A model generated the notes under the pieces. That model was not told the DNA's origin. It did not search any database and saw only the letters and a program-made list of their open reading frames with translations. This document shows, in pieces, positions 5,728 to 61,202 of a stretch of DNA of 64,000 bases. The position numbers and the translations under genes were made by a program. The DNA comes from Paraspadella gotoi (taxonomy: Eukaryota; Animalia; Chaetognatha), in the NCBI GenBank assembly GCA_051294375.1, contig JBJCIZ010000040.1, positions 166,330-230,329 on the forward strand. The letters run 5' to 3'. Position 1 is the stretch's first letter, and the number at the start of each line of letters is the position of its first letter.

Positions 5728-7855
5728 ATGTCTCAATCACAGTCAGGACCCTGCCCTATGAAGCCTGAGTTCCACGACCAAGCAAACGGGGAATCTGAGC
5801 CAAGTGAAGCCAGACAACACCCCAGGCAAAGACATAGGTCCAGATCATCTTCCTTAGATGCCAGCAAGGCAACTTTAAACAGGGCACGTTCACGCGAAAG
5901 AAGACCAGGCACATGGGAGGGACCCCAGTTCCAACAACACAGAGGAACCACACCAAACCCTGATTCAGAAGAATCAGATAATGAAGATAGCCTGACAGAA
6001 ATTGATGACCAACTGAAGAAAGTGGACGAATTCCAAGAGCTTGCGAGAGAAAAAGACGTGCTCAAAGCATCTTTGGAAGAGTATGAAAACAAATTGAATG
6101 ATGCTGAGAGCGAAATCCTGGGATTCAAAGACAAGAATGAAGACCTTGTCAGACAAAATGTAGATCTGCGCAAAGCCCTTGAAAACTAGAAAAACATGGA
6201 GTCTGCAAGGTCAACTGAAAGAGTGATTGCGGAGCTGCCAGCGTTTATTGAAGACGATGACGCCTTCACATCGGTCTCAAACTCCACAACTAGACACACC
6301 AAGACAAAAGACTTGACGCCCAGACCTTCAGCAACTATTATCCCTGGAACCCTCCCAGCCACCCCCACCCTGAACAGATTCTTTGGCAGGGGCGAACCCC
6401 CAAAATCAGCAAAACGAAGACCCTCCACTCCCCACGAGGACCACCCTAACAGGACGATGGATACCTTCAGCGACCATGTCCCCGACAAGGAAAAGGACGA
6501 TCGAAGATGTGGACAATGACCTGCGTGAAATCCGCAGAGAACTCAGAAAGGAACGGGAAGAAAGAGAAAGAGAAAGATTGGCTAAGGAAGAAGAAAGAAC
6601 GGCAAAAGAAGCCGAAAAAAGAAAAAAAAGGGAATACAAATACAGGCTGCAACAATTAACTGACAGACTCAATGGAATCAGCATTTCAACCAGCAGATCA
6701 GGCTCAGAGAGCAAGTCACCCACAACCTGCTCCAACACGTCACCAAAGCGAGGCAGCCACAGAGCCCTTCTGTGCAAAGAAGAGGACGCCAACATAGGGG
6801 ATGGAGACACCATACCCAGAGGGATAGGCAAGGTAAAAGGAAAACACTTCCCCCAAAGAGACAAATATCCCGCCTTTAGCGAATATTTCGCCGCCCTGAA
6901 AGAGAGCATACGAAACTGCACAGGGCAAGGATACACACTGTCCGAAATTGCCTGGGAGCTCTACCTGCATGCCCAAGAGAGCTCTTACGGAGGCGAATTT
7001 CTACACCAGCTAAACCGCCTCGGACTGAGCGACAAAAAGAAAACGGTCGAAGGCATCTTGAAAGCGATCAAGATGTCGGACTTTGATCACCGGTTTCTCA
7101 GCGCATGGGAGCGTTTCGCACAGCTCCGTAAAGCTGAATCCGAGGACGTAGCTAATTGGATGAGAAGACTGGAAACGGCCTATGATGCATGCAAGCATGT
7201 CTTCGAAGATGCAGAGGAGTTCCTCTCCAGGAGAACTTATGAGATAAAAAAGCAATTCTTCAAAGGAGGAGACTTCCCAGAGTGGATGGCAGCCCAGCTC
7301 AGACCATTCCACGACCTAACAGAGCTAGTCCTAAGCTGCAGGGCACTGGTTACCAAGGAAAAAGAAAAAAGGCAGAAACAAGCCAACGGGCAGACCCAAC
7401 AAGCCCCACAACAAAGACCATTCAAACCACGTCAACAAATCCAGTTCCAAACACAGCAGACCAACCAAGGGTATCGTCCACTGCAGCAATCCCCCGCATA
7501 GCATCAGCAACACCAGCCACCCCCACCTCCACAAGCCCACCAACCAGTGCAGCCCCTGATGCCACAGCAGCAGCATCAAGCCTTTGTGGCCACAACAACA
7601 CCACTCATAAAGCCTCCATCCTTCAGACCAAGATGGTCAGACAGGGCGCCAGCCCCAACAAGTGAGAGGCGACTACCAATAGGTGCAGAAAGGAACTTCA
7701 GAGGCACCCTCTGCACTAACTGCAGGCTCATAAACAACCACTTATCAGGACACTGCCCATACCAGGACTACTGCGGACACTGTCAGACAGAAAATGACCA
7801 CCCCTCCTACCGGTGCCCCATGCAGCAGCAACATCAACAGGCTAACCTGCATTGA
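5728..7855 (+). pseudogene. gag: gag of element 1 (2 in-frame TAG, one +1 frameshift near 6495)
   Basis: 5728-6189 and 6196-6519 are in frame across TAG 6187. A shift near DKEK/TIEDVDND joins 6383-7501, which continues in frame across TAG 7499 to two knuckles, CTNCRLINNHLSGHC and CGHCQTENDHPSYRC. Confidence 0.85.
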
Positions 7856-13470: not shown

Positions 13471-15155
13471 CCATAGAATAACCCCCCATACAGAAAAGAG
13501 AGAATAGCAGATGGACTGCGAACCAACCCTACCCCCCCTACACTTTCTGCCCAGCCCGCCGTGCCTACGATGCCTACCCCTCCCTAAGCCTCCCCAACAC
13601 CCCCTGCCTACCGTGGAACAGATGACCCACAGGATCTCCAGCCCGCTCAAAACCGAAATCCCGCCATCTGGAAACGCCGGACAGAAGATTAGCGGTATGG
13701 ACCTGCTTCACACCCAACCCCATCCTCAAACCCCGTGCAGCGACTTTCCAGGCCACAGACCCTGACATGGTACCAGTCAGGACCGTTGGCGTTGCTGTGC
13801 CCAAGCGGCCGCTCCCCACGCTACACCTAAACCTCTTTTGTATTCCAATCCCAACACCCCCTCCCCCCCTCGCCTTGAACCAATACAATCAAGGTTGCTA
13901 ATCATCAGGACGACGGTCCAACGAGAACAAAATCTCATCAAATCCCCCCCCACCCAAAGTCCATGAAATGGGACAATACCTTCTTCCTCTTGGTTTTTTT
14001 TTCTTTTCTTTCATCCTTCACTTCCTTCCAACTACCTCACCCGAACCAGACCTCAACAGCAATACCATCTGCCTTAGCTCTCAGACCCTAGTTTCCCCAC
14101 CTCTAAGCCGCCCCTTCATACCCCTTATACTACCCCGCTTCCTTTCTACCAAACCACTAGATTTGTTTCTTCAAGAATAGGAGGATGCGAAAAAAAAAAA
14201 AAAAAAAATTACTTCAGAACACCCATGGTGTCTCACCTTTGGCCACCTTCTTTAGTCTAAAATCTCAACCTTTTCAACTCCCACCTTCATTTCACCCCAA
14301 TAAACTGTGGCATGAAATCATTGCTCTCCCTTGCTTTCCGTTCTTTATTTCCTATCCACCTCAAATAAAACCTCCGCGTTCTTTACTTATTATTCACCCT
14401 AAATAAAATCGCTGCGTCAAACCGTTCTCTTACCGTATTCCAAAACCGCTTCAAGCCGTTTTCACGTTGTTACCCAACTTTTATAAAAAAAATTTAAAAA
14501 AAAAAATATATATATTGCGAACAACAAAGAAATTCTTTTTTTAATAATGCGCGCACTACTTGCTAACTTGATCAAAAAAAAAAAAATTTGTCTTTCCAAA
14601 ACTTTCTTAATCACTTAAAACCTATCTGACTTCCCTTCCACTTCTGAACTTGTTTAACTAACCTCTCCCTATCCAATCTTCCCTTCTACAACCTACCTTT
14701 ACCTTCTTAATCTTAATATATTTGCCGATGTTTGCCTCGCCATGCATGTCCTTTTTCTTTCTCCCTAAACCCAAGACTGACCAATAGACTTGACTGACAC
14801 CCCCCCTACCAACCCCTCAACCCAGTGACTACAGGTCTCCTCAAAAGCTGAAACCCAACCACAACCCCGGTCTCATCAAAAGAAAAAGCAAGCCAAGCCC
14901 CAACCAGCCACTCCATCAGGAGCAAGCCCAACCTCACCTTCAACCCTTGCCACTGACTCGAGCAGCCCACTCAGCGCCTCTGGTCACCAACGCCCACTCT
15001 CCCATCTGGAAACTACCTCCCCACACCGCCAGCCTTGACTACCTCGAACTAGTCCCAGCACCAACCTTCACGCCTTCCAGCACCAACCAAGTCGCCCCAG
15101 GCCAGCCCCATCAGCAGCAGACGCCTGTCGCTCTCTCTCACGCTCATCCCGTAAA

Positions 15156-16211
15156 ATGCCAACCATCATCGCGGCAGTTCTCTTCCTGACCCTGACCATC
15201 TCAACGGACACTAGGCTGCTTGGCTTCGACTGTTACGACCCACGGAGCGAAATCGTCCTTACGCGGACCATCAAGGAATGGAAGCAAGATTACCCCACCA
15301 AATTCACTGCAACGGCCTTCAACGAAAGATTCCGGGCAGGGTGGAATGCCGACTGGATCTACTTCCACCTGCAACACGAAGGGTATCTTGTCCTCTCCGA
15401 GGTGGACCCAGGCGCACCACGCGGCCTGGTGGCCACAATGGTCAAAGGAAAAGGGGTCCTCCTCAAGTACCATGAAACCACAGTGGAACCAGTGATAGAT
15501 AGCAACACTTGCTATGAGGAAATGCTCGTCGAACTCTCCTCTGGCGCAAGACGATTTTTGACCAACACCTCGGCAATCCTAATCACCCATGGAAGGGCCA
15601 GAGACTGCAAAGAGAAGGAGGAACACAAGGAAACAACCATCGCCTTGGCCGCCGAGAGCCTGGACAACGCCATGCTGTCAAGGATGGCACTATCCACACT
15701 GACCGAGGGACTCTTCAAGGGAAAGTTTGATGAGGACATCACAAAACTCTTCAACCCCAAAACCGTCCTCAAGCTCATCGAACTCGAGGAGTACGAGTCG
15801 GACAGAGTGTTCAGTGGCCTTGCCACTCAAGTGAGGCTATTATGGCCCAAAATCACAGTTGCATACCTCACCATCTACGCCACCCTCGCCGCCATAATAG
15901 TCACGCTCGCCTTCTCTAGAGGCATAACTCCCGTAAAATGCCTAGCCCTCGTATTCTCAGTGTTCAAGATTTTCGTAGACTACCAAAAATTCCTCAAAGA
16001 AACCCAGCTGCAAAGAAAGGCGGCCCTCTATGAAGAAATCCCTATAGCCAAAGACTCACGACCTCAGCAACTCCCGGAAGAGATTATGGGGAACATCCTG
16101 GATTGCCTCAACAGCATCCTCACCAGGATCGAAGACATAGAAGAACGACTGGCTGACCTGGATGACCGACCACCACCAGGGCGTCGCCGCGTCAGAACGA
16201 CGCTCCTCTAA
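15156..16211 (+). CDS. env: env-like type I membrane protein, 351 aa, chuvirus-glycoprotein-like motifs
   Basis: Signal peptide MPTIIAAVLFLTLTIS, then LLGFDC and CYEEMLVELSSGARRFLTNTSAILITHGRARDC. TM segment ITVAYLTIYATLAAIIVTLAF and a coiled-coil tail. Lies downstream of IN on the same strand and is uninterrupted. Confidence 0.8.
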   Translation: MPTIIAAVLFLTLTISTDTRLLGFDCYDPRSEIVLTRTIKEWKQDYPTKFTATAFNERFRAGWNADWIYFHLQHEGYLVLSEVDPGAPRGLVATMVKGKGVLLKYHETTVEPVIDSNTCYEEMLVELSSGARRFLTNTSAILITHGRARDCKEKEEHKETTIALAAESLDNAMLSRMALSTLTEGLFKGKFDEDITKLFNPKTVLKLIELEEYESDRVFSGLATQVRLLWPKITVAYLTIYATLAAIIVTLAFSRGITPVKCLALVFSVFKIFVDYQKFLKETQLQRKAALYEEIPIAKDSRPQQLPEEIMGNILDCLNSILTRIEDIEERLADLDDRPPPGRRRVRTTLL

Positions 16212-16435
16212 GGCCCCAACAACCAACTTCCACACCTCTACACCGCAACATCAGCAACCCCACAGTGACTCAAACCTCTCGGAAGCACCTCTCCTCACCT
16301 CCTCCTTTCCTCCTCAGTGGCTTTCTCCCATCCCAGCTTTCGACAGCGATCCTAACTACCCCTCAGCAATGAATCCAGCAAACGAAGCCAACATCCTCAG
16401 CAGCAACACCACGGCCTCTCATCCACCATCAATCT

Positions 16436-16675
16436 CAGTGCTCCTCATTGTCTCATACCCCCAAACCCCCCAGTGCTTCTCATTGTTCCCATCACCCCAA
16501 ACCCCCCAGGCTTCTCATGGTTCCCATCACCCCCAAACCCCCCCAATGCTTCTCATTGTTCCCATCACCCCCCAAACCCCTCCAGTGCTTCTCATTGTTC
16601 CCATCACCCCCAAACCCCCCAGCGCTTCTCACTATTCCCCACCCCCCCAGTGCTTCCCACTGTTTCCCTCACCCC
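16436..16675 (+). repeat. ~37-bp tandem repeat in the 3' region of element 1
   Basis: About six units of CCCCAAACCCCCCAGTGCTTCTCATTGTTCCCATCA. Confidence 0.9.
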
Positions 16676-17075
16676 CTTTTTTTTTTCTTTTCTTTTTTTG
16701 CCCCGTACATGTCACTACCCTCTCAAACACCACAATTTCATTTAAATTTTCGATCCCCCATGTTCGTATAAAACATCAATGCGATGCCCTATCCTGATTA
16801 CTTTGAAAAGAAAACTAACCCAAAGCGTAGAGTGTCCTTTTTCCAGGGATGAAATAATTCTTTTATTTTTACGTCCAATGAGCTGATATTTTAACAAAAA
16901 ATAGTCTGAACGTAGGTCTATTGCCCATTGGGTTAAAATTTAAATCGGACAATTCTAAACCACCAAAAAAAATTTTAAAAGTTGCATAACTTGGTTATTT
17001 TATTCACTTTGTTAGTTCATCGGTCCTACAAAATATCGTTGGAAAATTCTTTTTATCATATCAAAACATTGAATT

Positions 17076-34304: not shown

Positions 34305-36904
34305 TCACCGTTCTAGTTGCTTTCTTGTGGCTTTCTTTCGCCGAAAACCTCGTCACTTGTTATTCGATCATCAGAATCATTTTTAAAGAAAAGATCGGCC
34401 GCTGGAACCGTAGTTTTTACGGATCCAAGGATTTATACAAACATTTTTTCGACTTTTCATTGATTTGCCATGGATTTATCTCTACAAAAATACAAATAAT
34501 TTACAATTTATTCTACATTTTTCGACGTTTTTCTTTACGCTTCGAGATTTAGTAAGATACTAGAAATCCTTGCTCCTTGTCAAAATCTGTTCATCCGACG
34601 GCCGACGCCTCGAACGCGCGACCCCGCAGGCATAGAAAATACAAAAGATTTTCTACAGTAAAAACTACGAAACCGCCTCCTGGAATCGGCGTTCAAATCG
34701 AATCAACCAAGCAAAACATCAACAATGGACTCATCTACGAATGTCCAGAGGAAAATCAGCAATTGGCCAACACGATTAATCTCTCATTTAACCAAAATTT
34801 TGAAATTTTTAGCCAATTTATGGTGGAAAGTCTACTCCGCATGGAGCAGAAATCCACAGCCATTAAATGATTTGAAAGTGTCTTTTTCTCAGGCCAACGA
34901 TCGACCCAAAGGACGGAGGAGAGTCTTCAAGATGATCTTCACACATTGAAAGTTGAGATCATTACAATAAAGAGCAGCAGGAGAAAGACGAACTTGCCAG
35001 AAGACGCCTCCTTCACCCCTTTTCTCCCTTTTCAACACTTGAAAACGACGGGGAGTCGTTCGCTCAGCTACAAGCAATGGCGCCGCTCATTGATGCTGCG
35101 TGGCTCTGGCTGTCTCTCCACTTCATGATCGAATTCTAAAATTGGAGGAAAATCTCCATCAATTAGGAAGCCTCCAATCCTTGCCTCTTTATTCTCCGTA
35201 TCGTAATGACGAAGTTTTACCTCCTTTCACGTCTTCTCTAACAAAGAATAAGAAAATCTCCGAGAAGAAGAAAGGTTGTCTTCGCGACGCGCGCTGGTTA
35301 CGTCAATGTCTCCGTCCCCATCACCGATTTCAACTTCGACTCCTAGGCCATTTCCTTTGCCGCAACCTTCATCTTTAGCTCCACGACCAATTCCGTTACA
35401 AAGCCAATGCTATTTCAAAATGAAAACTTAAATCGACATCAAAGAACGTCGTAGCATTATCTGTGAAGAAAACCACCCGCACACCTTCCTGCGCCCACTA
35501 TCGTAAATTAAGTAGTGAAGAAAGAAAATGGGCCGCGATCAAAAAAATCTTTGCTTACGATGCTCGTCCAGGACACGAATCAAAGGACTGCCGCTCTGAG
35601 CGCAGTTGTAGCGCTTGCGACGGTCTCCACCACTCATCTCTTCATGATGTCTTCATGGACGAACAACGCTTTTGGGATAGCCCAGAATATGCAAAGTGAA
35701 TGACGACAACAATGTTGCTCGAATCAAAACAGTTCGTCCATAGTTGCAACGCCGTCATTGATACCATCAAATCAAAACAATTAACAGTGGCAAGACATAT
35801 TACTTTTTTTACCTTGATTTTTGAAACGGTTCAATTAAATAAAAAAAAAAAAATCATCATTTTATGAATTGAAGAGTTTCCGAAGTAAACATTTAAATAA
35901 ATAAAAGCGGAGGTTGTTTGAAATCCCATCTTAACAAAATTATCTTAGATCTTGGGCCTTGATTCATCTCTGGAGCTGGACTTCCCAGTGACTCAGTCCT
36001 GAGCCGAAGTCCTTGCCCAGGCGATCAAGTCAGCCCTTACGGGCGACGATCATAATACGTATGCTCTCCTCATGATGGTCAGGGACGATCCCAATACGTC
36101 CGCCTTCCCTCAAGGCAGTGACCACCATGCACAAGCCTCTAATTATTAGTAGCAGGGAGCTTATGCCCCATCGCTACTCAAGGCAGTGACCACCATGCAC
36201 AAGCCTTTAATTTTTAATAGCAGTGTGGTCTAGTGCCATTGCTACTTAAGGCAGTGACCCCTATGCACATGCCTTTATGGCATATCTTAATTATTCTACA
36301 GCTTTGTTTAATTTTTCTTTCCATGTGCCTTTTCTCTAACTTCACGTCGTCTTTCAATGACGGGGGCGACGACGGTTCCAACGGCAACAATTCTCTACCA
36401 TTTTCAATGACGGGGGCCAAGTTTCTCAAACATCACACGACTTTTACTTTGAAGCAAAATTCTAATCAATTTTGGACGGGGTGTAAGATATTTTGTTACC
36501 TCGCGTCGGGTCATTCTTTTAGTCATTTAAGTTGACCTTAGCTGACCTTATCTTTTCACCGTTCTAGTTGCTTTCTTGTGGCTTTCTTTCGGCCGAAAAC
36601 CTGTCACTTGTTATTCGATCAGAATCATTTTTAAAGAAAGATCGGCCGTCTGGAACCGTAGTTTTTACGGATCCAAGGATTTATTACAAACATTTTTTCG
36701 ACTTTTCATTGATTTGCCATGGATTTATCTCTACAAAAATACAAATAATTTACAATTTATTCTACATTTTTCGACGTTTTTCTTTACGCTTCGAGATTTA
36801 GTAAGATACTAGAAATCCTTGCTCCTTGTCAAAATCTGTTCATCCGACGGCCGACGCCTCGAACGCCGACCCGCAGGCATAGAAAATACAAAAGATTTTC
36901 TACA
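34305..36904 (+). mobile_element. Second, indel-rich copy of the gag-only Bel/Pao-like element (5' LTR truncated)
   Basis: Colinear with 40173-42776. 3' LTR is 36482-36904. It is followed by the same minisatellite flank as the other copy. Confidence 0.85.
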
Positions 36905-37170
36905 ATGCCAGTTGACCAAATTATGCCAGTTGATCAAATTCTGCAAGTTGATCAAGTTCTGCAAGTTGACCAAATTATGCTGTTGACCAAATTATGCCAG
37001 TTGACCAAATTAGGCCAGTTGATAAAATTATGCCAATTGACCAAATTATGCCGGTTGACCAAATTATCTTAATTGATCAAATTATGTCAGTTGACCAAAT
37101 TATGTCAGTTGACCAAATTATGTCAGTTGACCAAATTATGCAAGTTGATAAATTATGCAAGTTGACCAAG
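36905..37170 (+). repeat. 18-bp minisatellite (ATGCCAGTTGACCAAATT)n
   Basis: Direct inspection. The same array occurs at 40035-40098 and 42777-43040. Confidence 0.9.
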
Positions 37171-40028: not shown

Positions 40029-40098
40029 CTGACGAAATTATGCCAATTGACAAAAATATGCCAGTTGACCAAATTCTTAAAGTTGACCAAATTATGCC

Positions 40099-42776
40099 TG
40101 TAAGATATTTTGTTACCTCGCGTCGGGTCATTCTTTTAGTCATTTAAGTTGACCTTAGCTGACCTTATCTTTTCACCGTTCTAGTTGCTTTCTTGTGGCT
40201 TTCTTTCGGCCGAAAACCTCGTCACTTGTTATTCGATCAGAATCATTTTTAAAGAAAAGATCGGCCGTCTGGAACCGTAGTTTTTACGGATCCAAGGATT
40301 TATTACAAACATTTTTTCGACTTTTCATTGATTTGCCATGGATTTATCTCTACAAAAATACAAATAATTTACAATTTATTCTACATTTTTCGACGTTTTC
40401 TTTACGCTTCGAGATTTAGTAAGATACTACGAAATCCTTGCTCCTTGTCAAAATCTGTTCATCCGACGGCCGACGCCTCGAACGCGCGACCCCGCAGGCA
40501 TAGAAAATACAAAAGATTTTCTACAGTAAAAACTACGAAACCGCCTCCTGGAATCGGCGTTCAAATCGAATCAACCAAGCAAAAACATCAACAATGGACT
40601 CATCTACGATGTCCCAGGAAAATCAGCAATTGGCCAACACGATTAATCTCTCATTTAACCAAAATTTTGAAATTTTTAGCAAATTTATGGTGGAAAGTCT
40701 ACTCCGCATGGAGCAGAAATTCCAACAGCCATTAAATGATTTGAAAGTGTCTTTTTCTCAGGCCAACGATCGGATCCAAAGGACGGAGGAGAGTCTTCAA
40801 GATGATCTTCACACATTGAAAGTTGAGATCATTACAATAAAAGAGCAGCAGGAGAAAGAACGAACTTGCCAGAAGACGCCTTCATCTTCACCCCTTTTTT
40901 CAACACTTGAAAACGACGGGGAGTCGTTTCGCTCAGGCAAATGGCGCCGCTCATTGATGCTGCCGTGGCTCTTGCTGTCTCTCCACTTCATGATCGAATT
41001 CTAAAATTGGAGGAAAATCTCCATCAATTAGGAAGCCTCCAATCCTTGCCTCTTTATTCTCCGTATCGTAATGACGAAGTTTTACCTCCTTTCACGTCTT
41101 CTCTAACAAAGAATAGAAAATCTCCGAGAAGAAGAAAGGTTGTCTTCGCGACGCCGCTGGTTACGTCAATGTCTCCGTCCCCATCACCGATTTCAACGTC
41201 GACTCCTAGGCCATTTCCTTTGCCGCAACCTTCATCTTTAGCTCCACGACCAATTCCGTTGACAAAGCCAATGCTATTTCAAAATGAAAACTTAAATCGA
41301 CCATCAAAGAACGTCGTATGCATTATCTGTGAAGAAAACCACCCGACACCTTCCTGCGCCCACTATCGTAAATTAAGTAGTGAAGAAAGAAAATGGGCCG
41401 CCGATCAAAAAAATCTTTGCTTACGATGCCTTCGTCCAGGACACGAATCAAAGGACTGCCGCTCTGAGCGCAGTTGTAGCGCTTGCGACGGTCTCCACCA
41501 CTCATCTCTTCATGATGTCTTCATGGACGAACAACGCTTTTGGGATAGCCCAGAATATGCAAAGTGGATGACGACAACAATGTTGCTCGAATCAAACAGT
41601 TCGTCCATAGATGCAACGCCGTCATTGATACCATCAAATCAAAACAATTAACAGGTGCAAGACATATTACTTTTTTTTACCTTGATTTTTGAAACGGTTC
41701 AATTAAATAAAAAAAAAAAAATCATCATTTTATGAATTGAAGAGTTTCCGAAGTAAACATTTAAATAAATAAAACGGGAGGTTGTTTGAAATCCCATCTT
41801 ACAAAATTATCTTAGATCTTGGGCCTTGATTCATCTCTGGAGCTGGACTTCCCAGTGACTCAGTCCTGAGCCGAAGTCCTTGCCCAGGCGATCAAGTCAG
41901 CCCTTACGGGCGACGATCATAATACGTATGCTCTCCTCATGATGGTCAGGGGACGATCCCAATACGTCCGCCTTCCCTCAAGGCAGTGACCACCATGCAC
42001 AAGCCTCTAATTATTAGTAGCAGGGAGCTTATGCCCCATCGCTACTCAAGGCAGTGACCACCATGCACAAGCCTTTAATTTTTAATAGCAGTGTGGTCTA
42101 GTGCCATTGCTACTTAAGGCAGTGACCCCTATGCACATGCCTTTATGGCATATCTTAATTATTCTACAGCTTTGTTTAATTTTTCTTTCCATGTGCCTTT
42201 TCTCTAACTTCACGTCGTCTTTCAATGACGGGGGCGACGACGGTTCCAACGGCAACAATTCTCTACCATTTTCAATGACGGGGGCCAAGTTTCTCAAACA
42301 TCACACGACTTTTACTTTGAAGCAAAATTCTAATCAATTTTGGACGGGGGTGTAAGATATTTTGTTACCTCGCGTCGGGTCATTCTTTTAGTCATTTAAG
42401 TTGACCTTAGCTGACCTTATCTTTTCACCGTTCTAGTTGCTTTCTTGTGGCTTTCTTTCGGCCGAAAACCTCGTCACTTGTTATTCGATCAGAATCATTT
42501 TTAAGAAAAGATCGGCCGTCTGGAACCGTAGTTTTTACGGATCCAAGGATTTATTACAAACATTTTTTCGACTTTTCATTGATTTGCCATGGATTTATCT
42601 CTACAAAAATACAAATAATTTACAATTTATTCTACATTTTTCGACGTTTTTCTTTACGCTTCGAGATTTAGTAAGATACTACGAAATCCTTGCTCCTTGT
42701 CAAAATCTGTTCATCCGACGGCCGACGCCTCGAACGCGCGACCCGCAGGCATAGAAAATACAAAAGATTTTCTACA
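40099..42776 (+). mobile_element. Complete non-autonomous gag-only Bel/Pao-type LTR element
   Basis: LTRs 40099-40525 and 42351-42776 (TG...CA, near identical). TSD ATGCC at 40094-98 and 42777-81. PPT GGACGGGGG. No pol. Confidence 0.93.
40594..41651 (+). CDS. gag: Short Gag-like protein: coiled coil, Pro/Ser linker, three Bel/Pao zinc knuckles (frameshift near 40935, likely a sequence error)
   Basis: CIICEENHPTPSC, CLRCLRPGHESKDC, CSACDGLHHSSLH. The two copies differ by indels exactly at the shift. Confidence 0.8.
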
Positions 42777-43376
42777 ATGCCAGTTGACCAAATTATGCCA
42801 GTTGATCAAATTCTGCAAGTTGATCAAGTTCTGCAAGTTGACCAAATTATGCCTGTTGACCAAATTATGCCAGTTGACCAAATTAGGCCAGTTGATAAAA
42901 TTATGCCAATTGACCAAATTATGCCGGTTGACCAAATTATCTTAATTGATCAAATTATGTCAGTTGACCAAATTATGTCAGTTGACCAAATTATGTCAGT
43001 TGACCAAATTATGCAATTGATTAAATTATGCAAGTTGACATTATCGTAGGCAGATTCGACATTGTTTGCTCAAACTTGTTGTTAAATTAAAACCTTTTTA
43101 TTGTTCCAAAAATTGTTCTTTTTTTTCAAATTTAGGTATTGCTAAATTCTGAAGCGTTTATCAGCTGACATTAGTTTTTTATTAACATATTTTTTATTCA
43201 AAAGGAAAATATTTCTAGTTCTGTTTATATTTATTTTATCTAATAAGTTGTACATAAGCATATATTTTTATATCTTTTTCTTTATTGTGGTATTCCTTTC
43301 GTTTTGTTGTTTTGGTGTTTTTAGCGAAAACAAAGTTTAGAATTTGTATTACAACGATTTTTATTTAAAATAATCA

Positions 43377-49289: not shown

Positions 49290-51780
49290 TGAGACAGCAG
49301 CTTACCGGAGCACCTGTGAGTACCGAGCCATCTGAGTTTAAAGAAGTCACTATGGACATGGAAACAGCTTTGGGCTTGGGCTATGACCCAAATACCTATG
49401 AGTATTTCTTCAAGGTGAGTGACCGAAAGGCGGGGGAGATGGACTTCTCTCGAAGGAAATTGTTGTCAGTCACAGCTTCAGTCTATTCACCTTTGGGCGT
49501 AGCATCTTCATGTATACTTCAGGCAAGGTTATTACTCCAAAAGCTTGTAAAGCCGATTTTGGTTGGGATGATCCTCTCCCTGAGGAGATAAACCAAGCTT
49601 TTAAGGAATGTCTAGGACTTCTGCCTAGTTTGTCTCTGGTCCGAGTCCCATGGTGGAAAAAGACCTCGCCCTACACAAAAAATTCAACACTTTATATTTT
49701 TGTTGATGCTTTTAGCGTGGCTTATGGTGCTGCAGCTTATCAACAAATTGTTGATGAATATGATGTTGTGCATGTGAATATTTTGGTTGCAAAGGCACGT
49801 ATTACTCCTTTGAATCGGTCTGCCACAAAAAGTCGCGAAACAATTCCCTGTTCTGAGATGCAAGGAGCTATCTCTGGAATTGATTTGTACAAGTTTCTCA
49901 AACATGAAGCAGATGAAGACCTGGGTGATGTGTTCTTCTGGATAGATGCTACCTGCATCCTGAAGATGATCAGAAATAGGACTACACAGTACAAGGCATA
50001 TTTTTTCAATCGTTTGAATACCATTCATGAGGTGACAGATGTTGGCCAGTGGCGTTATGTTCCCACCAATAAGAATCCATCGGATCTGTGTTCCCGTGGT
50101 ATTGATGCAGATGATTCTGTATCCTGGAAGTTTTTGCATTGTGGTCACGAGTTTCTACTCGATTCACCTTCCCTGTGGCCTACTGAAGAAGAAAAGGGTT
50201 GTTTTCATGCAACTAGTGATTTTCAAGTGCATACTATTGAGGCAGCTGCTTCGTCAGCTGCCTCAGATGTCTTTGAGGAATTGGCTTCAAATGTCTCCAC
50301 ATGGAGAAGGTTGATCAGGCGTTTTGCTATCTGCTCTTTTTTTTGCAGAACGCTTCAGAGGAAGCGCAAGCCTGGCCCTTTGACACTTGAAGATGAGATG
50401 GACAGTGAGAAGCTTGTGCTTCAACTGCTCTAAGAGCAACATTTTGGTAAAGAGATTGCTATCCTTCAGCCAGCATCCCCTTCAGTTTCTCAGCGCTCTG
50501 AAGTCAAAAGTCTTTTCCTTCACCGCCTAAACCCATTCATTGGAAGTGATGGTCTCCTGAGAGTTGGTGAACATCTTCAGCGCCTTGTTGGAGAAGAGTA
50601 TGATTCAAAGCATCCAATCATTTTGCCTGCCTCTTCTTGTATCACCAAGATGATCATCAATTGGCGCCACTGCAGAGATGCACATACCGGGCCTGACCAG
50701 ATTCTGGCAAAGTTGTGGTGCAAGTTTTGGATCATCAGAGGTCGTGCTACTGTTCAGCAATGTATTCGACGCTGCACCGCTTGTAAGTGGGGTCATAGGA
50801 AAACTTTGCAGCAAAAGATGGCTCCATTACCTAGTCTGCGTGTTGGCATTGGTTATCCTTTTGAGATGACTGGAGTGGATTTGTTTGGTCCTTTCTATGT
50901 GAAGTCAGGATGTCATACTCCAAAGCATTGGGGGCCCTTTTTACTTGTCTCAAGATGCGCGCTATCCATTTAGAACCTCTGAGGGATATATCAACTCCTG
51001 AGTTTTTGAGTGCTTTTTAACGTTTTCGTGCGCGATGCCCCGGTGTCAAGGTTCTTTGAAGCGACAATGGCACCAACTTCCATGGTGCAACCAAGGAGTT
51101 GGATGATGCTCTACACAAGTGGAACCAAGAGGCCGAAGAACAGTTCAAACATCATCATATCAAGTGGCTCTTCAATCCTGCTGAGGCGCCCCATTGGGGA
51201 GGCGCCTGGGAATCTCTCGTCAAGATTACGAAGAAAGCGTTATTATCCCTTATTCAGAAAAAAGACATCTCTGACGTCGTGTTTGGTACCTTACTTTGCT
51301 CAGTGGAGAACATTGTGAATGATTGTCCTATCATGAGGAATCCTGAGAGCGCAAAGGATCCGCCTGCGTTGTTGTATCCCGGTCTTCCTGGCCTTGGTGC
51401 GCACCTGACTGGTCCTCCACTGTCTGATGGACAGTGCGCCCCCACTGCATGGCAGCAGCTACGTGCCCTTGCTGATGAGTTTTGGAAGCGGTGGCGTTAT
51501 GAGTATATTGCCGAGCTGCAACAGCGCCAAAAGTGGACAAAGCCACACCACAATCTCAAGAAGGGCAACATCGTCATCATCGCGAATGACAAGCTACTTC
51601 GGTCCCATTGAAGTTGCTATTATAGAGGAGCCGCTCGGGGATGGCACTCATGTGCGCCGTGTCCGAGTCCGTATGGCAAAAGGAACTGTCCTTGACCAAG
51701 ATTGCTCCAAGCTTGTCCTCCTCAAATGCCATGAAGAAGACGGAAAAGAACTTGATATTTCTGATTTTATAAACGTTTAG
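49290..51780 (+). pseudogene. pol: Bel/Pao pol 3' half (RT end, RNase H, integrase)
   Basis: SRRKLLSVTASVYSPLG, FVDAFSVAYGAAAY, VAKARITP, WRYVPTNKNPSDLCSRG, KMAPLP..GVDLFGP, APHWGGAWESLV, FWKRWRYEYIAELQQRQKW. PPT-like GCGGGGG at ~51988. Confidence 0.95.
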
Positions 51781-53394
51781 ATTTTTATCTGTGTACAGTG
51801 TACATTTTTATTGTAGATATATTTACCATTTTTATCATAGATGTTTTTACCATTTTTTATCGTGGATGCTTTTATCATTTTTTATTGTAGATGGTTTTAT
51901 CATTTCATATGTTTTGTAGTTCCCTATTTTTATAGCTAACGCCATCTTTTTACTATTCGCTTTTATTTATCAGGGAAACCCTGATAGCGGGGGTATTGAG
52001 AAAGCGATGCCCTTTTATTCTCGCATAATTATTTAGTTTCGTTTAGATTGATAGAATCATTTGTTTTCCATTAAATATCTTGCCGTGCTCCTCCCCGCGA
52101 TCAGCTGTTATGTAAGCTAACGAACGAGCGTGTTTCAGTTTAATCTTTCCAAGTCTTTTACTCTCAATTCAAACACGTGTAAAAATGAAAAGGAAAATAC
52201 TTTAAATAATGTTTTGTGACTTTACTGCCAATGTTTTATTCTCTATTCTGGAACCCAAATTAAAGTTTTAAACTGAAGCACTTCTTCTCCTTCTCCTACC
52301 ATCCATTCACCATTGCCTTGGTTCCTTGCTTATCTGTCTACTTACCATGAATATTTGTACCTGAGATTGGAAATTATGTTATCTCAAAATGTGGTTACTA
52401 TTTCTGCTTTATTACATGGTTCTAAGAATATAAGGTTATATTTAAGGAGTTTTACATGTTAGAACAGTTTGGTTTCCAAAGATATTTATTTGAGAGCAGT
52501 TGAACACGGATTTGAATTCAATAATTAATTAGGGCACAAATTAAGGCACTCTAGAAGAACAGAGATGAAACTTAGATTTGTTTTAATTGGGATAATCTCG
52601 GATTATCTAGGTCGCGCGTTAAGAAGTGCTTCAACTACCTTGGGCCAGACTCAGATAGAAGTTTTAAACTGAGTAAGGAGGATGGATTGATCCTCTAAGC
52701 TGGCAACAAAACTTTGAAAAAGTTGCTGAAAGCCAAGTTCTGGGAGTGTAGTGTTTGGGTGATTTTTTACATATATCTACTAATGATTCTTCTTTCTCCA
52801 ATGGAAACCAGATTGTGAATGTCGTTCATGGGATGGATTAAATCAAGATAAATTGCCTAAAGATTTAATAGTCTTCTTGTATGGCATTGTTACTGAGGAT
52901 AGGATAGAAACTAAAATATATATGCCAAAAATTTTTTTTTCGGGGTTTGTGTCCAACTCCTATTTAATTTCATTATCAAAATAAAATTGGGTAATAATAA
53001 CTAATTTCTTTTATTAATTTTTGACATTAGCTCATTAATTTTTTTATAGTTCTTTACCATTTCATTTAAGTAAACAGACAGGGATTTCAATATGAAACCA
53101 AAGTGGAATTTTATTCTCAGAAAATAGACATGAAGACGGTGTCAATTTTCAGACAGAGTGAATCAAAGCAGAAACAGAGGCTATTTATAAAGGGTAAGTA
53201 GACGAAGCCAGATTCCTCTTCCGGAATCCTCTTCCTCTTCTGGAACCTTCTTTTCCTCTTCCGGAAACTATTGTTCCTTTTCTGGATTTGGCTTCCAAAA
53301 TCCCATTGAAATCATTCCAGAATCTTCTTCCTCTTCCGGAATCCTCTTCCTTAATCCTTTCCTCTGTTTCCGGGTTTCATTCCTCTGTGATGCG

Positions 53395-53407
53395 TCCCCC
53401 CCTCTTC
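53395..53407 (-). promoter_or_regulatory. Polypurine tract of element 2
   Basis: GAAGAGGGGGGGA, 2 nt before the 3' LTR. Confidence 0.85.
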
Positions 53408-53740
53408 AGGCGACGGCGTACGTGGTCAGTCGGGAGCTGGAGCGAATCCTTGAGACCGTGATGAGGGGATGAGATTGGCCGCGCCTGTTGGCCTGGTCCA
53501 CTTTGGTACAATGTATATTCCCGAAGGGGAAAGAAGAATTGTGTGACGTCGTTTTCCTTTCTTCTCTCCTTGTAGTTGTTATTATTCTCGGGTGAGGGAG
53601 TTTTATTTTTATGAGTTATGAATTTTGAGTTTGAATTAAATCTTGAATTTTTAGTTTATTTTGTTTACGTCTAGTAATTGACTTTTACGGCTACAAAAGG
53701 TATGTCTGGTATTGTATGGTTTGGTTTGGAGACAAGCGTT

Positions 53741-56700
53741 TCACCTCGTTGGCCTCTCCTCGTGCTTCTTAAGCCGGCGTCTGTGGTATCTGAGGTTTTG
53801 GCCAGCAATCGAGAGGACATAGTGGTTTCCTTCTTTGCTTACTACTTTGTGGGGTCCTGAATAAATCCTCTTTACTTTGTTCTCGGTTGTGGCCGTTCCA
53901 GTCATGATTAAGTCGCGTCTTGCCAGGACTAGATCTCCGACCTTAATTTCTTCTGGCTGTCTGTACGGGTTTCTCCTTGCCGATTGCCTGTACAGTTTGG
54001 TTCTTTGGTCAGCCAGTCTTGCTTGGGCTTTTTCTTGCTTGTCTGCTCTGTGTCTTATAAAGTCGATGAGATTTCTTTTTGTGAAATCATCCGCACTTTC
54101 AACTATTCTTGGTCTATGGCCAAATTGTATTTCGTGGGGAGACATGTCTGTCTTCCATCCAATGATGGGAGTGGCGTTCAGGAGGAGCATTAGGTGGGGA
54201 AGCTGTTCCAGCCACTTTCTTGGTTGGTCCTCCACTGCTTTGCGAAGGGCCTGGCGGATTCTGCCGATATCTCTTTCAGCCCTGTTGCTATCCTTCCTAC
54301 CCACGAGGACGCGCCTGCCCACCGTGTCAAGCAGGTTCAGAATGGACTTCATGGCTGTGCCATTCAGTTGCATTGCGCCATCAAAATTAACTTCCATATA
54401 TGATCCATGTTGGAGGAAGATCTTCTCGTCGAGGGCTTTGACTATTGTTGTGGCGTCCGCCTTGCGCATGGGTATGGCCCAAGTATATGCAGATGCATTG
54501 TCTGAAGCAACAAGGACGTAGTTATATCCAGCGACTTGAGGAAGATGCATCACATCAATGCTGAGCGATTCCCACGGCGTGATGGCTAGGTTGGGTGCTG
54601 AGGGTGTCTCATTGTTTCTTTGCGCATCCGTTGATTTTGCACAGTTTTCACAATCTCGGACACACTTGGCCGCGGCTGTCGTTAACCCTGGAGCAGAGAT
54701 GTATTGAGCCGTGATGAAGGCCGTGCGGTCCCTGCCTGGGTGTCCAAAGCGAGTGTGGAGCTGCTTTGTGATTTCCTCTGCTCTGCTGGGTGGCACAACA
54801 AATTTTGTTGTCGGATTGTCAGCCTTGTATCCTCTGATGATGAGGATCCCGTTGTTGGTGATGTCAAGATCGTCCAGGCAGTTTGAGAGGTACTTTTGGT
54901 GACTGTTTTCCGCTTTTGCATTTTCTCATTCAGTTTCATTCTCGCCTCCTCACGGTCGCCCCTTTGAAGTGCATCTACCACAAGTCTGAAGGAGTCCTCC
55001 TCTTCCTGCCATCTTTTAACATCCATGGTGATGGGGATGAGGCCCTCTTCCCTGGTGTGTGGCGCCATAGTCTCCTCAGCGACCTCTGATTCGGTAGCAT
55101 CGATGTCAGCCTCTAGTGAGCTGTCAACCATGATTTCTCTTTCAGCCCCTGGCCATCTGGTCCCGATAGCTTCTAATGCTGGAGAGGCTCCAGAAGCAGC
55201 TGATGCGTTTTGGGTGGTGGTTGTCTCCCCGACCTGTATGTTGACAAGGTCATCTGGGAGGGTGTCAACATGATGCATGTTGACATCAAGGCATCTGGGC
55301 CTGCCTCGACGTTCTGGTTGCCTGAGAGCTCCCACTTGGATGGTCTGGATGGGTCCATGATTCATCGGACGCAGGGGTGGCTGGGGCTCTTCATTGCTGA
55401 CCAGGCTGACCTGACCGGTGATTGTCCTGAAGATCTTGAGTCGCCTACCACCAACTTGTGGCCCATATGTCCTTTCGTATTTGCAGCCAGTTTCCCTGGC
55501 AGAATCTTCGTCCATCATTATCAGGGTCACCCCGGTCATCTCACTAAGCATTTCCAGTTCTGGGTGGCCAAGGCTCCAATCCTTTGCGGATATCGTCCTA
55601 ATAAAAGTGTCCACATCCTTTGTCTTAGGTTTGCCATATAACCTTTCCATGTTTGTTTTTCTTCTGCACAAATTTTTGGCGCACAAATTCAAAAAACTTT
55701 GCCCTGAAGGTTTTTGTGTCTTCTCCAAGTACTTGCGCTACTAGCGCTAGAGTCGGGGCATGGCCTGTGATTAGATCCAGGTGCTCGGCACACATGGTCT
55801 TCTATGGGGTTTTCAGCAAAGCCGGGCTCATACTCGCCGCTGACGTCAAACCCGGCAGGGAAGAAAGGAGTATCTAATGGTGTGACCTGTCCCTGGTCAG
55901 TGAATCTTGTTAAGAAATCGGCGGGATTGTCCTCGCTTTGACAAGGATGACCTCCTTTGGTTGGCACTCTTGTCGAATTTCAGTTATCCATCTCAAGACG
56001 TTTGTTGGAGCAGCTGCTGTCTGTCATGCTGTAGGTCCATTACTCTTTTAAAATATTGCGAGTCAGTGACAAGGGTGACGCTCCTCCCACATGTGTAGCC
56101 TTTGAATTTTCTGACCATCATGTTGAAGGCGAGAGTCTCCAGGATGTTGATGTGTTTGATCCTGTATTCTTCAGGGAATGATTTAGAGTGGAAGGACAGT
56201 GGATATTCAATTCCATCAGCAGTGGCTGTGATCAACCCACCCATGGCGCTTGTACTGGCATCTGCATAGATCCTGTAAGCTCCATGTTTGATCCTGGCAT
56301 CGGTGAGAAAGTTCAGACCTGGGGAGGACCTTATCTCTTCTACAAGCAGTTTCAGCATCCCGATGTGTTTGTCTGTGAGCTTGAAGTCCTTTTATTCCAG
56401 TAAGGTTAGGGCGTGAAGGGGTTGGGCGATATATGAGAATCGGTGTGTGAAGCATCTGTAATAATTTAAGATGCAAGCATCGCCCTGAGCTCCTTTTGGG
56501 TTTTAGTGACTTCAGTTTGACCTCGACTGCTTCGATTTCTCCTTCTGTGCATGAGCTTGCTCTTGGAGATGCTGAAGCCAAGGATTTTTATGTCCTCCTT
56601 CCTCAGCAGCACACTTTTAGTCCATTTGAGGACGACATTCTCATCCCGGCATTTTTGGAGGAGGTCGCGCAGCCTTTCAGCCATATCCTCCGGCGACTTG

Positions 56701-58400
56701 GCCGTGCAGGATGAGGTCATCAACATATACTTAGAAGCTCTTCACATCTTTTCCCAGGTCCTTGAATATCTCGTCCAAGATCGCCTGAAGAACATTAACA
56801 CTGTTGACTCCTCCCATTGGCAGCTTATTCATCCACCAGTTGTGACCAGCACCAGCAAAGGTTGTGACAGGCTTGCAGCGGTCTGTCAAGTTCACCTGGT
56901 GGAAGCATGCCAGGATATCTACCGAGCATTGAAAGTTCGTGCGGTTTGTATTGTTCCAGTATTGAAGCAATGGTCTGGGGGCCTCTGTTGCATATGTGGA
57001 AATGTTATTATTGACGGCAGATAGGTCACAGATGAGGCGCCATTGTTTTGCAAATGTTTCGTCGCTCATCTCATCCTGTCCTTCGGCAATGTGTCCTGGC
57101 TTTTTTATTAAGAAGGCATTTGAGTAGGCCTCATTTCTTGTCCGGGACACGATGCCAGCCTTTTCATACACTTCCAGGTATCTCTTTAGTGCCGCCTTCT
57201 TCACTGGTCCTTGATTTGTGAATCTTGGTTTTGGGAGATCCTCCTGTGTGTAGCCGAGATCAACTTTATAGTTGAGGAAACCTTCTTTGCAATCATTGAT
57301 AGTTTCCCCAAAGACGTCCCTGTATTCCCAAACAATCTCCCAGACGAGGTGGGCTTTCTCCCGCAGGCTAGGGTCCACATCCTTGAATGGTTTGAGGAAG
57401 GCCTCTTTGCCACGCTTGTCACTGTTTTTGCCGCCTCCTCTCTCGGGCATCCTCAACAGCTTTGATTTCCTCCTTGCTTGGTTGATGGTGACAATCGTTG
57501 TGGCTGGATATGATCTTTTCGAATCCTGAGTTGAGGTTTGCTTCCTGACAAATCTGCCTGTACAGGTTCTGCTGTGTTGTTGGTTTCCAGTTGCAGGTCG
57601 GCCTTTGCTTCATTGGTGATAAGCGGGCGGGCGATTCCCCAGGGTCCTGGGTTTGCATCAATTTCCACACCTTCCTTCAACTGGTCGCCATCAGCAATGT
57701 ACATTTTATCGCCGTCCTGGGATTGAACGATCCATCTTACCCCTGAGAGCGTCTTCCAGTAGGCTCTTCCTGCTGTCAGCTGGGTGTTGCCAGTGCAGTC
57801 TCGCTCGACATGCACTGGTAGGGTTGTTTGCTCATCAACATTTCCCCGTGCGAGCCACCTGGCTGCCTTTAGCGCTTCATACTTGTCCCTGAACAAATAT
57901 ACTTGTCCACTTGAACAACATGCCGCTGTGACTTTAGGACTTATTGTCCATGGAGCGACATGTTAGTGTCTCCTTCTGATTGGCGCGCAGCAGATTGAAC
58001 CTTACACACTAGTAAATTCGGTCAGCGCGGACCAGGTCGTAGTGCACGGCCTGTCCCGGACATTATTATGTCGCGGATCGTTCTCATCCTGGCCGAGAAC
58101 ATAAACAATACTGCTTGAAGACGGACCCAATTGATTTTGAAAACATAATCGCAAGGTTGATCCTCCTCGGTCAGCGTAGCGGGATCGTTCGTAGTGCCAA
58201 GCTGGCTGCTTGAGAGGCGTAAAAGGCTCAGTTCCATGGTTAGAATCTTAGCTTCGACGAGGCCCCCCACTTTTCAAGAAACCTTTTCTGTAAAACCGGG
58301 GACCGTGTTTACAGATGCACCTGCCTGTCATACAGGCAACTAGCACGGTGCTCGCCCCGAGCACTGCCTGCCTAGGTACTGGTACTTCTCTTTGCCTCTG
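53741..58400 (-). pseudogene. pol: pol of element 2 (many frameshifts): PR, RT, RH, OTU-like insert, IN
   Basis: YD-GASVNT at ~58330; WRLICDL; VYVDDLIL at ~56712-56731; YADAS, NILETLA, VTDS, NPADFLTR; IN HTRFGH..CENC, SIDV, NFDG, NRAERD, YSGPHKV. Confidence 0.92.
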
Positions 58401-58699
58401 TTATGACAGGCCAAGTTCCAGCGTATGTCGTCTCTGTCGGTTCCCACGCGTCCTTGGTCCCCTTGCTATCTAGCACTGGTCCAGTCCTTTCTATGCCAGC
58501 GCAGCATCATCCCACCTCATCCTTACGGTTGTTTTCAGTTTTGAGGAAGGAAAGCAACGCGAATGTTTGCTGGTTTCGCCGCTAGGCCATTTCCCATCAT
58601 CACAACACGCCTGATGGCTTGCCTGCGGTATGGATGCCGACTTCTCCATCTGACATCGCGCCCACGCCTACTATGCAGGTTAAGTTGCGGTTATTCATT

Positions 58700-60765
58700 A
58701 CTGCCAGTCGGTTGAAGCTTTCTGAGTCCCAGTCTTTCTCCCGTTTTATCGGGTTTGGTCGGTTTTCTGGGTTTTCTCAGGATTAGGACGACATTAGTGG
58801 CATTCGGCGGCAGTGATGGAGCGTGGTGATAGCATAGGCTGCGTGGTGAGGATACTGCAGCAGGAAGAGGTCGGCGGGTGCCCGTGGTGCAGATCAGGAA
58901 CGGCCTTGTCACTCAATATCTTGAGCCTCTCTTTGTGCCCTCCTTGCCCAATTTTGGCACAAGCTTCTCGACCTTGTGCATGATGGCCCGGTCTCTCAGC
59001 AATTGTCGCCTTGTTTCCAGCCCTTTCCATCCCAGTTTATGGAGATGCTTGTTGGCTGAGGGCAAGCTCCTTTTGCTTTCAGCGGGCTGCTTAAACAGTT
59101 TGTACATACGCGACGAGAAGCGCTGACTTTCCTTTAAGCCTGTTTGCCGCTTTCAGCAAGGTCTTAATCCTGGCTATTGAATCATGGCTTACACTTTGTC
59201 GGTCCTTATCTCCCATGACTCTTTTGCAACTGTTTTTGTAAACTTCTTCAGCTGTTTTGGTGATTGTTTGAAAACACAGTTGTCTTTATTTTTAGTTGGA
59301 TATGGGGATTGGTGAGCGTCCTTGTTCAACTCTAGGTAGTTTGGTCCACAATATCACGCTCTGTATCCAACAGGTGGTGGCGCCGGGGCCTTTCTTTTCT
59401 CCAGATTGCCCTTTCCTGGCTTTCCACATCCACGATTTTGTTCGTGTTTCTCTTTTATTACTAATTGAGATCCAGCTGTCGGTAGTCTTGGAGGTTGCTG
59501 AGGTTGCCAGAGCGGTTTGATTTTTCAAGCCCCTCTTTCAGTTCTTTCATTGCTTTTATGCTTCATTGGTTTGAGCTGCCTGGAGCATGGTGCTTTGTTG
59601 TATGGTCCAAAGTGCTTGCTTCTTGAATCCTGGTCCCGCTTAATAGTATGATTGCGTAGCTTCTTTGTTGATCCTCTAATGTTGACTTAATGATTTTTCG
59701 CGTTGGATGTTCTAGGGTTCTTTTTGACCAGTATAGCCCCGCAACTTATATTCAATTACCCTTGCCAAGACAGGTCGCCGCGGTTTCTCCTCTCTCAAGC
59801 ATCTGCGGTCCATTCCAGAGTTTTTCGACAGTGCATGCCTGGACATATGGGCTCAGAGCCTCCAACAAGCTATTTGGGCCGACAAAGTCTGGATGGAGGC
59901 TCTGTCCTTCTCCCTTACAGTTTCGAAGTTCTCCTTTGCTTCGTTGACAAGGGCAAGTGCCCATATTTGGCATGTACTTTGTGGATTAACTTCAATTTTG
60001 GCATTTCAGCAAGATGCTTCTGTGGATGCTCACTGATGATTTCTGTTGCAGAGTGCCACAAAGTCCTAGCCACATATGATTTGGTCGATAGGTTCTATGA
60101 ACTGGCTGGCAATCTTGTTCTCGCGCCAGTTAGGGCTTCGTAATTGCTGGTTCGATTTGTCTTGGGCTGAGGCAGATCCTTAAAAGCCTCATAGAAGCTG
60201 CGCTAGAAATGTCTTGTGTTGTTGATATCCGTCTAGCCCATCCTCTCAAGCACTGAATGGGAATGATTCGACTAGAGTAGTTAGGATGGGTGTGGTCCAT
60301 CTCCATCTTGCCAAGAGGTTGTCCCACAAAGGCATCATGGGGTTGATCTTGCAGTCCAGTAGCACGGAGTTGTCCAGCCTCTATGGTGTTGGGGTCTTGG
60401 TTGTTGCGCCAAGATATCATGGTCTTCATCATGTCTTTGAGTTTATCCAGTTTTGAGCCAAGGCCTGCTTCACTGTCTTTGACTCTTTGGCTCAAGTTAT
60501 CAAGATTTTGTTGTGTCTGCTGGTTGACGTCATTGACGATCTTTAAGATTTGGCGGGTGATTTCCGCCTGGTCATTGTCCAATTGGCAGTGATCCCTTAG
60601 AGCTCCATCCAGCTTGAATGTTTTGAACTCCACTTTGTCCCGGGCACTGCTACCGTCTTCTGTGCTTGCGGCGTCAGTTGATTGTGCCGCAGCCCCTTTT
60701 TTCCACTGGAAAAGGTTCCATCCTGACTTGGCTGGAGGAATGGCGGGGGCAGAGGTGTTGTCCAT
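58700..60765 (-). pseudogene. gag: gag region of element 2 (heavily frameshifted)
   Basis: ATG 64 nt after the PBS, with an N-terminal coiled coil. Assigned by position between PBS and protease; the 3' limit is uncertain. Confidence 0.55.
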
Positions 60766-60829
60766 TTTCTTTAGGGGTTGTGTGGTCGAGGTAAAGCTTG
60801 ATTCTTCTTGGAGACGTGGTGAGTCGAGT

Positions 60830-60844
60830 CCACTCCTGTCACCA
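60830..60844 (-). promoter_or_regulatory. Primer binding site, tRNA-Leu-like
   Basis: TGGTGACAGGAGTGG immediately after the 5' LTR. Confidence 0.8.
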
Positions 60845-61202
60845 CATTTAAGTAAACAGACAGGGATTTATATGAAACCAAAGTGGAATTTTATTCTCAG
60901 AAAATAGACATGAAGACGGTGTCAATTTTCAGACAGAGTGAATCAAAGCAGAAACAGAGGCTATTTATAAAGGGTAAGTAGACAAGCCAGATTCCTCTTC
61001 CGGAATCCTCCTCTTCCTCTTCTGGAACCTTCTTTTCCTCTTCCGAAACTATTGTTCCTTTTCTGGATTTGGCTTCCAAAATCCCATTAGAAATCATTCC
61101 AGAATCTTCTTCCTCTTCCGGAATCCTCTTCCTTAATCCTTTCCTTGTTTCCGGGTTTCATTCCTCTGTGATGATTTTATTTAGACTTTTAAAAATTTAC
61201 CT

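Follow-up and report, generated by a model that had tools for sequence, protein, structure and literature searches.

Within a 64,000-nt stretch of the genome of the chaetognath Paraspadella gotoi (contig JBJCIZ010000040.1, positions 166,330 to 230,329 of the forward strand; hereafter the window), we analyzed a young, gag-only long terminal repeat (LTR) element of the BEL/Pao type, 2.7 kb in length (40099-42776), and the way in which it may prime its reverse transcription. Its two LTRs are 99.3% identical, and all three differences between them are homopolymer indels. LTR length (0.2-1.2 kb range), polypurine tract and 5-bp target-site duplication all fit BEL/Pao. The near identity of the LTRs and the intact target duplication show that the element replicated recently with the primer site described below. 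We found neither AATAAA nor ATTAAA in its LTR, only AATACA at 40357 and 40506. An ATTAAA followed by an A-run lies at 41702-41721, just past the gag stop, and a separate gag mRNA end there is possible. The 18-bp tandem repeat around the element (40040-40098 and 42777-43040) is very deep in contigs of the same organism from public run X1, in which RNA and DNA are not distinguished and which contains 46% of the sampled words. Coordinates of the features are listed in Table 1.

An earlier reading of this DNA (the original prediction) had proposed that the element carries no tRNA primer-binding site and instead primes itself in the manner of Tf1 of Schizosaccharomyces pombe. Self-priming has been demonstrated for Tf1, whose primer is the first 11 bases, released by an RNase H cut between bases 11 and 12 (accessible text of PMC7175516). 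The basic observation was borne out. The 12 nt at 40526-40537 follow the 5' LTR with zero spacer, lack TGG, and are the exact reverse complement of 40276-40287 inside the LTR. The polarity fits a primer, as the 3' C of 40276-40287 pairs with the first base past the LTR. Among 20,000 dinucleotide shuffles of the LTR, a match of at least 12 nt arose in 6 at offset 0, and in 20 when offsets 0-5 were allowed. None of 1,790 positions in the internal region of the element reached an 11-nt match to the LTR. A Gypsy-like element in the same window, taken as a control (53063-61173), has TGG and a self-match of only 6 nt.

Table 1. Features of the element, its predicted leader structures and its second copy (positions in the window).
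Feature	Position	Strand	Remarks
5'-truncated duplicate of the element with 3' flank	34305..37166	+	primer site 34409-34420, primer-binding position 34658-34669
Left target-site duplication, ATGCC	40094..40098	+	same 5-mer at 42777-42781; inside 18-bp tandem repeat
5' LTR	40099..40525	+	427 bp, TG..CA, without intron at the primer site
TATA-like TTTAAAG	40248..40254	+	not conserved in related X1 contigs
Competing helix, 5' arm TCGGCCGTC (predicted)	40261..40269	+	pairs with 40465-40473
Predicted self-primer CGTAGTTTTTAC	40276..40287	+	11-12 nt, 3' end ...UUAC; predicted cut between 40287/40288
Predicted R-U5 stem, 5' arm CAAGGATTT	40293..40301	+	minimum-free-energy and centroid folds
Predicted R-U5 stem, 3' arm AAATCCTTG	40432..40440	+	minimum-free-energy and centroid folds
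Competing helix, 3' arm GACGGCCGA (predicted)	40465..40473	+	
Predicted 8-bp hairpin at the U5 end	40501..40523	+	adjoins primer site; pairing probability 0.83-1.0, all 18 folds
Primer-binding position GTAAAAACTACG	40526..40537	+	flush with LTR terminal CA, without TGG
gag-derived open reading frame (ORF)	40594..41651	+	two overlapping frames, triple Cys-His box; frame break near 40.9-41.0 kb
Polypurine-rich tract GGACGGGGG	42342..42350	+	ahead of 3' LTR; seen in the sequence
3' LTR	42351..42776	+	426 bp, TG..CA
Right target-site duplication, ATGCC	42777..42781	+	

The coding content places the element in a family. All three motifs of the triple Cys-His box (CX2CX3-4HX4C, CX2CX2-4HX4-5C and CX2-4CX3HX4H; PMC554778), together with an HH doublet, lie in the 40911-41651 frame of the gag ORF. 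The frame break may be an assembly error, since 41 indel events and 14 substitutions separate the two copies of the element in the window. A Pfam scan of the gag ORF gave no diagnostic family and no capsid (DUF1759) match, word searches with the gag protein returned zero and one weak match, and scans of viral_contigs returned nothing. A HMMER search with the zinc-knuckle region gave 4,310 matches. Among the best 150 of these we scanned 29 (11 top-ranked and 18 long), and found DUF1759 in 23, Peptidase_A17 as well in most of the long ones, and no Pfam match in the other 6. By these comparisons, the gag is BEL/Pao-type. No pol ORF was found anywhere in the 1.8-kb internal region. Given the lack of pol and of a detectable capsid domain, we regard the element as a non-autonomous BEL/Pao derivative and not a full family member. 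With no pol, it must borrow reverse transcriptase (RT)-RNase H and integrase in trans, a feature that the original prediction did not mention.

Alignment of RT sequences retrieved 94 related loci, 80 from metagenomes and 14 from genome bins. We note that the latter (L081-L094) are BEL/Pao loci in records filed as bacterial genome bins, presumably through contamination with host DNA. The LTR 3' end could be defined by divergence of the two LTR copies in 15 of the 94 loci, and to these we applied a uniform rule: the self-complement had to start at offset 0-5 from the LTR end, and be either contiguous or joined across GT[AG][AC][GT]..YAG. A self-complement of 10-15 nt was present at the primer site in 13 of the 15 relatives. 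It was contiguous, as in the chaetognath element, in two of the 13 (4 and 6 of 300 shuffles), and in the other 11 it appeared only across a predicted GT..YAG intron inside the LTR (0-1 of 300 shuffles each). TGG stood at offset 0 in none of the 15. When LTRs were swapped among 17 elements, only 7 of 272 pairings matched over at least 11 nt, and a single trio of related elements accounted for 6 of these. We also scanned blind, with a GT start imposed, 21 further loci whose LTR pairs are incomplete, and 13 of them gave 10-14 nt (no more than 1 of 60 shuffles). An unshuffled scan of the remaining 43 loci, most of whose contigs stop short of the LTR, gave at least 11 nt in 8. Blind matches in L016, L041 and L090 were without LTR confirmation and were dropped from the statistics, and a repeat in L094 was rejected as an LTR because it is a tandem array. 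As a separate observation, TATA takes the place of the LTR terminal CA before the primer site in L003 and L022 (from two LTR copies) and in L053, L033 and L079 (from context only).

We then compared primer and site across a set of 25 families, comprising the chaetognath element and 24 loci, with RT identities of 44-89%; L059 (site not starting GT) and L084 (one mismatch) were left out. The original prediction had expected the two sites to covary, and across this range of RT divergence they do. The 25 families have 21 different primer-site 10-mers, with three to four letters at each of positions 3-11 of the site, and L054 and L074 differ by a matched change in primer and site. This diversity argues against a common host primer. 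The match is most often 11 nt long (14 families), and otherwise 12 (4 families), 10 (3 families) or 13-15 nt (4 families).

The predicted introns find support in one pair of close relatives. L053 lacks exactly the 168-nt intron predicted in L057 and L030 (L053:1-230 compared with L057:6830-7400 and L030:300-900), and L053 and L057 are 90% identical. L053 is either a spliced transcript or a case of precise intron loss; whether it derives from RNA or DNA, the precise lack of these 168 nt supports the predicted joint. In the 22 intron-bearing families, exon 1 supplies merely 3-7 nt of the primer. L028, L066 and L069 all have GTAAAAACTCT as their site and AGAG^TTTTTAC as their joined primer, which is in register with the contiguous GTAGTTTTTAC of the chaetognath element; this element looks like an intron-less member of an intron-bearing lineage. 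An intron at its own primer site was considered and rejected, as there is no split match. In a quick RT tree, all tested loci fell in one clade (support 96) with the contiguous forms scattered among the intron-bearing ones, a pattern that suggests repeated intron loss.

We used folding models to ask whether the leader RNA could bring primer and site together. For RNAs that start at 40264-40277 and are folded to 40560, the predicted primer helix has a probability of 0.95-1.0 (0.64-1.0 when folded to 40620), and the R-U5 stem 0.95-0.98. The original prediction had described this adjacent 9-bp stem. Its arms are found, and they pair in the predicted folds, but an abundant variant lacks the 3' arm: one X1 contig (depth 58.7) skips 40424-40461. 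Across the 25 families, R-U5 pairing beside the primer exceeds that of shuffled sequence (0 of 100 null sets; window z -2.1). The leader is also predicted to form a competing 9-bp helix, which consists mostly of a CGGCCG palindrome with three occurrences in the LTR; a 9-bp perfect repeat arose in 35 of 5,000 shuffles. When the RNA starts at or before 40261, this helix excludes the primer helix in nested folds, and the two could form together only as a pseudoknot, which is beyond the model of the folding program. A start near 40264-40277 is predicted to favor the priming fold, and an earlier start the competing helix. Tf2 offers a precedent for a self-primer controlled through its start site (accessible text of PMC5341516).

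The original prediction placed the RNA start near 40276 on the strength of the TATA-like TTTAAAG, and this argument proved weak. Five X1 contigs join the window at 40254/40255 with other upstream sequence, so that TTTAAAG is missing from related contigs that do keep 40254-40291, and TATA[AT]A is present upstream in only 1 of 28 families. A start near 40276 is compatible with the folding models but draws no support from the TATA argument. An initiator-like and a downstream promoter element-like motif are correctly spaced in 1 of the 28 families, namely this element (A+1 at 40231); we considered the pair uninformative and did not use it. Pairing in the relatives continues beyond the primer. Between the 10 nt upstream of the primer and the 10 nt that follow the site, pairing reaches -5.0 kcal/mol, versus -3.2 kcal/mol when shuffled (25 families). 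None of 300 null sets was as good, and 9 of the 25 families stood out individually, whereas a distal control pairing was not better than shuffled (293 of 300 null sets). This upstream pairing suggests that the RNA of the relatives begins upstream of the primer, unlike that of Tf1, and so a start away from 40276 would not alone be contrary to self-priming. An extra helix upstream of the primer of the chaetognath element was rejected (z +0.8).

The original prediction also cited a second copy of the element, at 34.3 kb, as a further instance of the match. This copy does carry both sites, but it is not independent of the 40-kb copy. About 260 bp of 3' flank is common to the two, within a single 2,939-bp alignment of 97% identity, and the 34.3-kb copy has no clear LTR start and no left target duplication. 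Hence, it is a segmental or assembly duplicate and not a second insertion. The X1 contigs provide other versions of the site: one is changed at 40537, the 12th base, which leaves 11 pairs, and another matches through 40537 and diverges after it.

Based on the sequence comparisons, the folding models and the analogy with Tf1, we conclude that, to prime reverse transcription, the element probably uses its own RNA and not a tRNA. The leader would fold so that 40276/7-40287 pairs with 40526-40536/7, beside the R-U5 stem and the U5-end hairpin. By analogy with Tf1, an autonomous partner would provide RT-RNase H in trans within a shared particle; this enzyme would cut the RNA after ...UUAC at 40287 and extend the new 3'-OH into U5, with CA copied as TG. 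In principle, plus-strand synthesis copies a primer into the primer site; here it would copy the self-primer back, so that the two stay matched. The primer of most relatives would exist only once the predicted LTR intron has been removed. The core of the original prediction, self-priming in BEL/Pao, thus gains support from the BEL/Pao-type gag and the covariation, although the TATA-like motif, the second copy and the stem proved weaker than claimed. We further propose a broader scenario, which we think could equally prove right or wrong. In this scenario, an animal BEL/Pao clade swapped tRNA priming for an 11-nt self-primer, mostly assembled by the spliceosome across an LTR intron, so that splicing licenses reverse transcription. 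Families without the intron, this one included, would have arisen through repeated copying of fully spliced RNA, and they may gate priming through the choice of start site, by way of the competing helix.

Several results weigh against self-priming as we describe it. The element has no RT, and its link to the clade consists of a short zinc-knuckle match (up to ~43% identity) and a shared GTAAAAACT motif. Both the donor pattern and the 0-5 offset of our uniform rule were fixed after the first matches had been seen; the offset is the same criterion as that in the accessible text of PMC6317226. Two of the 15 relatives fail the rule: L084 has one mismatch, and L054 reaches 12 contiguous nt only with a BLAST-defined LTR end. 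One of the 15, L093, has TGG at +1. In the folding models, the primer helix drops to a probability of 0-0.57 once the RNA reaches as far as 40700-40800. For starts at 40225-40261 the probability is no higher than 0.05, the fold from 40200 to 40560 being an exception among the early starts.

We weighed three alternatives. The one that survives best, which we nevertheless regard as unlikely, is that the helix is real and selected but has a structural or regulatory role (in packaging, translation, or as a switch of reverse transcription), and that another primer is used, such as an internal tRNA fragment or a host RNA. The predicted exclusion of the primer helix by the competing helix is indeed switch-like, and pairing runs beyond the 11-mer in relatives. 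tRNA priming is what ICTV (the international committee for virus taxonomy) gives for the family, and Copia lineages are known to include some that use half-tRNA primers and have no TGG (accessible text of PMC6317226). A structural role is harder to reconcile with the geometry, as in 13 of 13 passing cases the helix stops 0-5 nt short of the LTR end and has primer polarity, and its length peaks sharply at 11 nt. Moreover, to account for 21 different 10-mers in 25 families one would have to invoke many host RNAs, every one with a chance match in the LTR, and an Rfam scan of the element returned a single, chance-level match (E 0.92).

A slightly less likely alternative is that the primer derives from the element but acts in trans, as a short transcript of the LTR or a small RNA that a host nuclease has cut, without a RT-RNase H cut of the folded leader. 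The R-U5 pairing beside the primer that beats shuffles in the 25 families fits a fold in cis instead. In the 9 relatives that we looked at, A[AT]TAAA lies at or downstream of the primer 3' end, and ordinary 3' processing would thus not produce an RNA end at that point. On the other side, the depth of LTR pieces in the X1 contigs is 20-60 times that of the internal region, so that LTR RNA could abound, and pairing in trans would bypass the competing fold. Finally, we regard it as very improbable, and largely refuted, that the match is due to chance, to a single aberrant copy or to an assembly rich in indels. The motif is A/T-rich, the two copies in the window are not independent and lie 41 indel events apart, and the test was picked after the match had been seen; yet such a match arose in just 6 of 20,000 shuffles, and the site recurs in independent X1 contigs and in 13 of 15 relatives.

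The known elements closest to this one in priming are Tf1 and Tf2 of S. pombe, Tj1 of S. japonicus and, within Ty3/gypsy, the Tf1/sushi and Tcn1 groups, which likewise lack a tRNA site and have a site complementary to their own LTR. Self-priming has been proposed for Tj1, the Tf1/sushi and Tcn1 groups and the plant Copia TAR elements (accessible text of PMC4600332, PMC6317226 and PMC7175516). The likeness to Tf1 extends to the 11-nt length (here 12 nt at offset 0; mode 11, in 14 of 25 families) and may extend to a neighboring U5 structure, which is predicted here. In contrast to those groups, this element has a BEL/Pao gag, is non-autonomous, uses other primer sequences and is known from sequence alone; the primer of most relatives spans a predicted splice joint and is likely not the RNA 5' end. 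The claim that the mechanism is the same as in Tf1 is only partly borne out, as a predicted intron splits the primer of most relatives and pairing continues upstream of it. We rejected membership of the Tf1/sushi group itself, as the gag is BEL/Pao-type and the relatives carry a Peptidase_A17-type pol, not Ty3/gypsy proteins. For the TAR lineage of plant Ty1/copia (Houba, Osr-1), self-priming is predicted by the same sequence criterion, an LTR complement of at least 10 bp starting 0-5 bp after the LTR; these are plant Copia elements, and the accessible text mentions no intron-built primer (PMC6317226).

Within its own family, the element shares with Belpaoviridae/Semotivirus (BEL, Pao, Tas, Suzu, Sinbad) the triple Cys-His box (accessible text of PMC554778), LTR size and polypurine tract, and DUF1759 and Peptidase_A17 are present in its nearest gag relatives. 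For Belpaoviridae, the ICTV profile gives host-tRNA priming with an 18-nt site for tRNA-Arg or tRNA-Gly, and this element differs in that it lacks a tRNA-Arg/Gly site, a pol and any detectable capsid domain. Plants, too, have LTR elements that are gag-only and non-autonomous, namely TR-GAG. These resemble the chaetognath element in their LTRs, polypurine tract and single gag-derived ORF, whereas the latter is an animal BEL/Pao element with a nucleocapsid-type ORF only and without a tRNA site.

The window also contains other elements. The Gypsy-like control on the minus strand (53063-61173) is so named by inference, from RT and integrase matches without a Pao-type domain. It has 329-bp LTRs that are 97% identical, an ordinary TGG primer site, termini CAT...ATG rather than TG...CA, and an apparent 4-bp AAAT duplication. 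A large LTR-type element on the plus strand (6374-16797) has protease, RNase H and integrase matches, and a downstream ORF with a below-cut-off match to Monjiviricetes_fusion (viral fusion glycoprotein, E 0.0012), which is possibly env-like. A decayed BEL/Pao pol remnant on the plus strand (49423-51700; Peptidase_A17, E 1e-18) is ~29% identical to the sampled loci and lacks its 5' part.

The replication of BEL/Pao elements has received very little study. We found no report of BEL/Pao self-priming or of LTR-intron primers in the full-text literature, a scope that leaves out Repbase, GyDB, the original Suzu paper and subscription journals, and the terms PBS and tRNA do not occur in the main text of the BEL/Pao survey PMC3118150 or the Sinbad paper PMC554778. 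Within the literature searched, we found no precedent for a primer built by splicing. The intron-less element of P. gotoi is the simplest natural substrate on which to examine self-priming, since it predicts one exact RNA end (40287/40288). If BEL/Pao self-priming is true, annotation tools that demand a tRNA site would miss such elements. They would likewise evade silencing through tRNA 3' fragments. All three LTR superfamilies would then hold self-primed lineages, which would bear on whether tRNA priming is ancestral or self-priming arose repeatedly.

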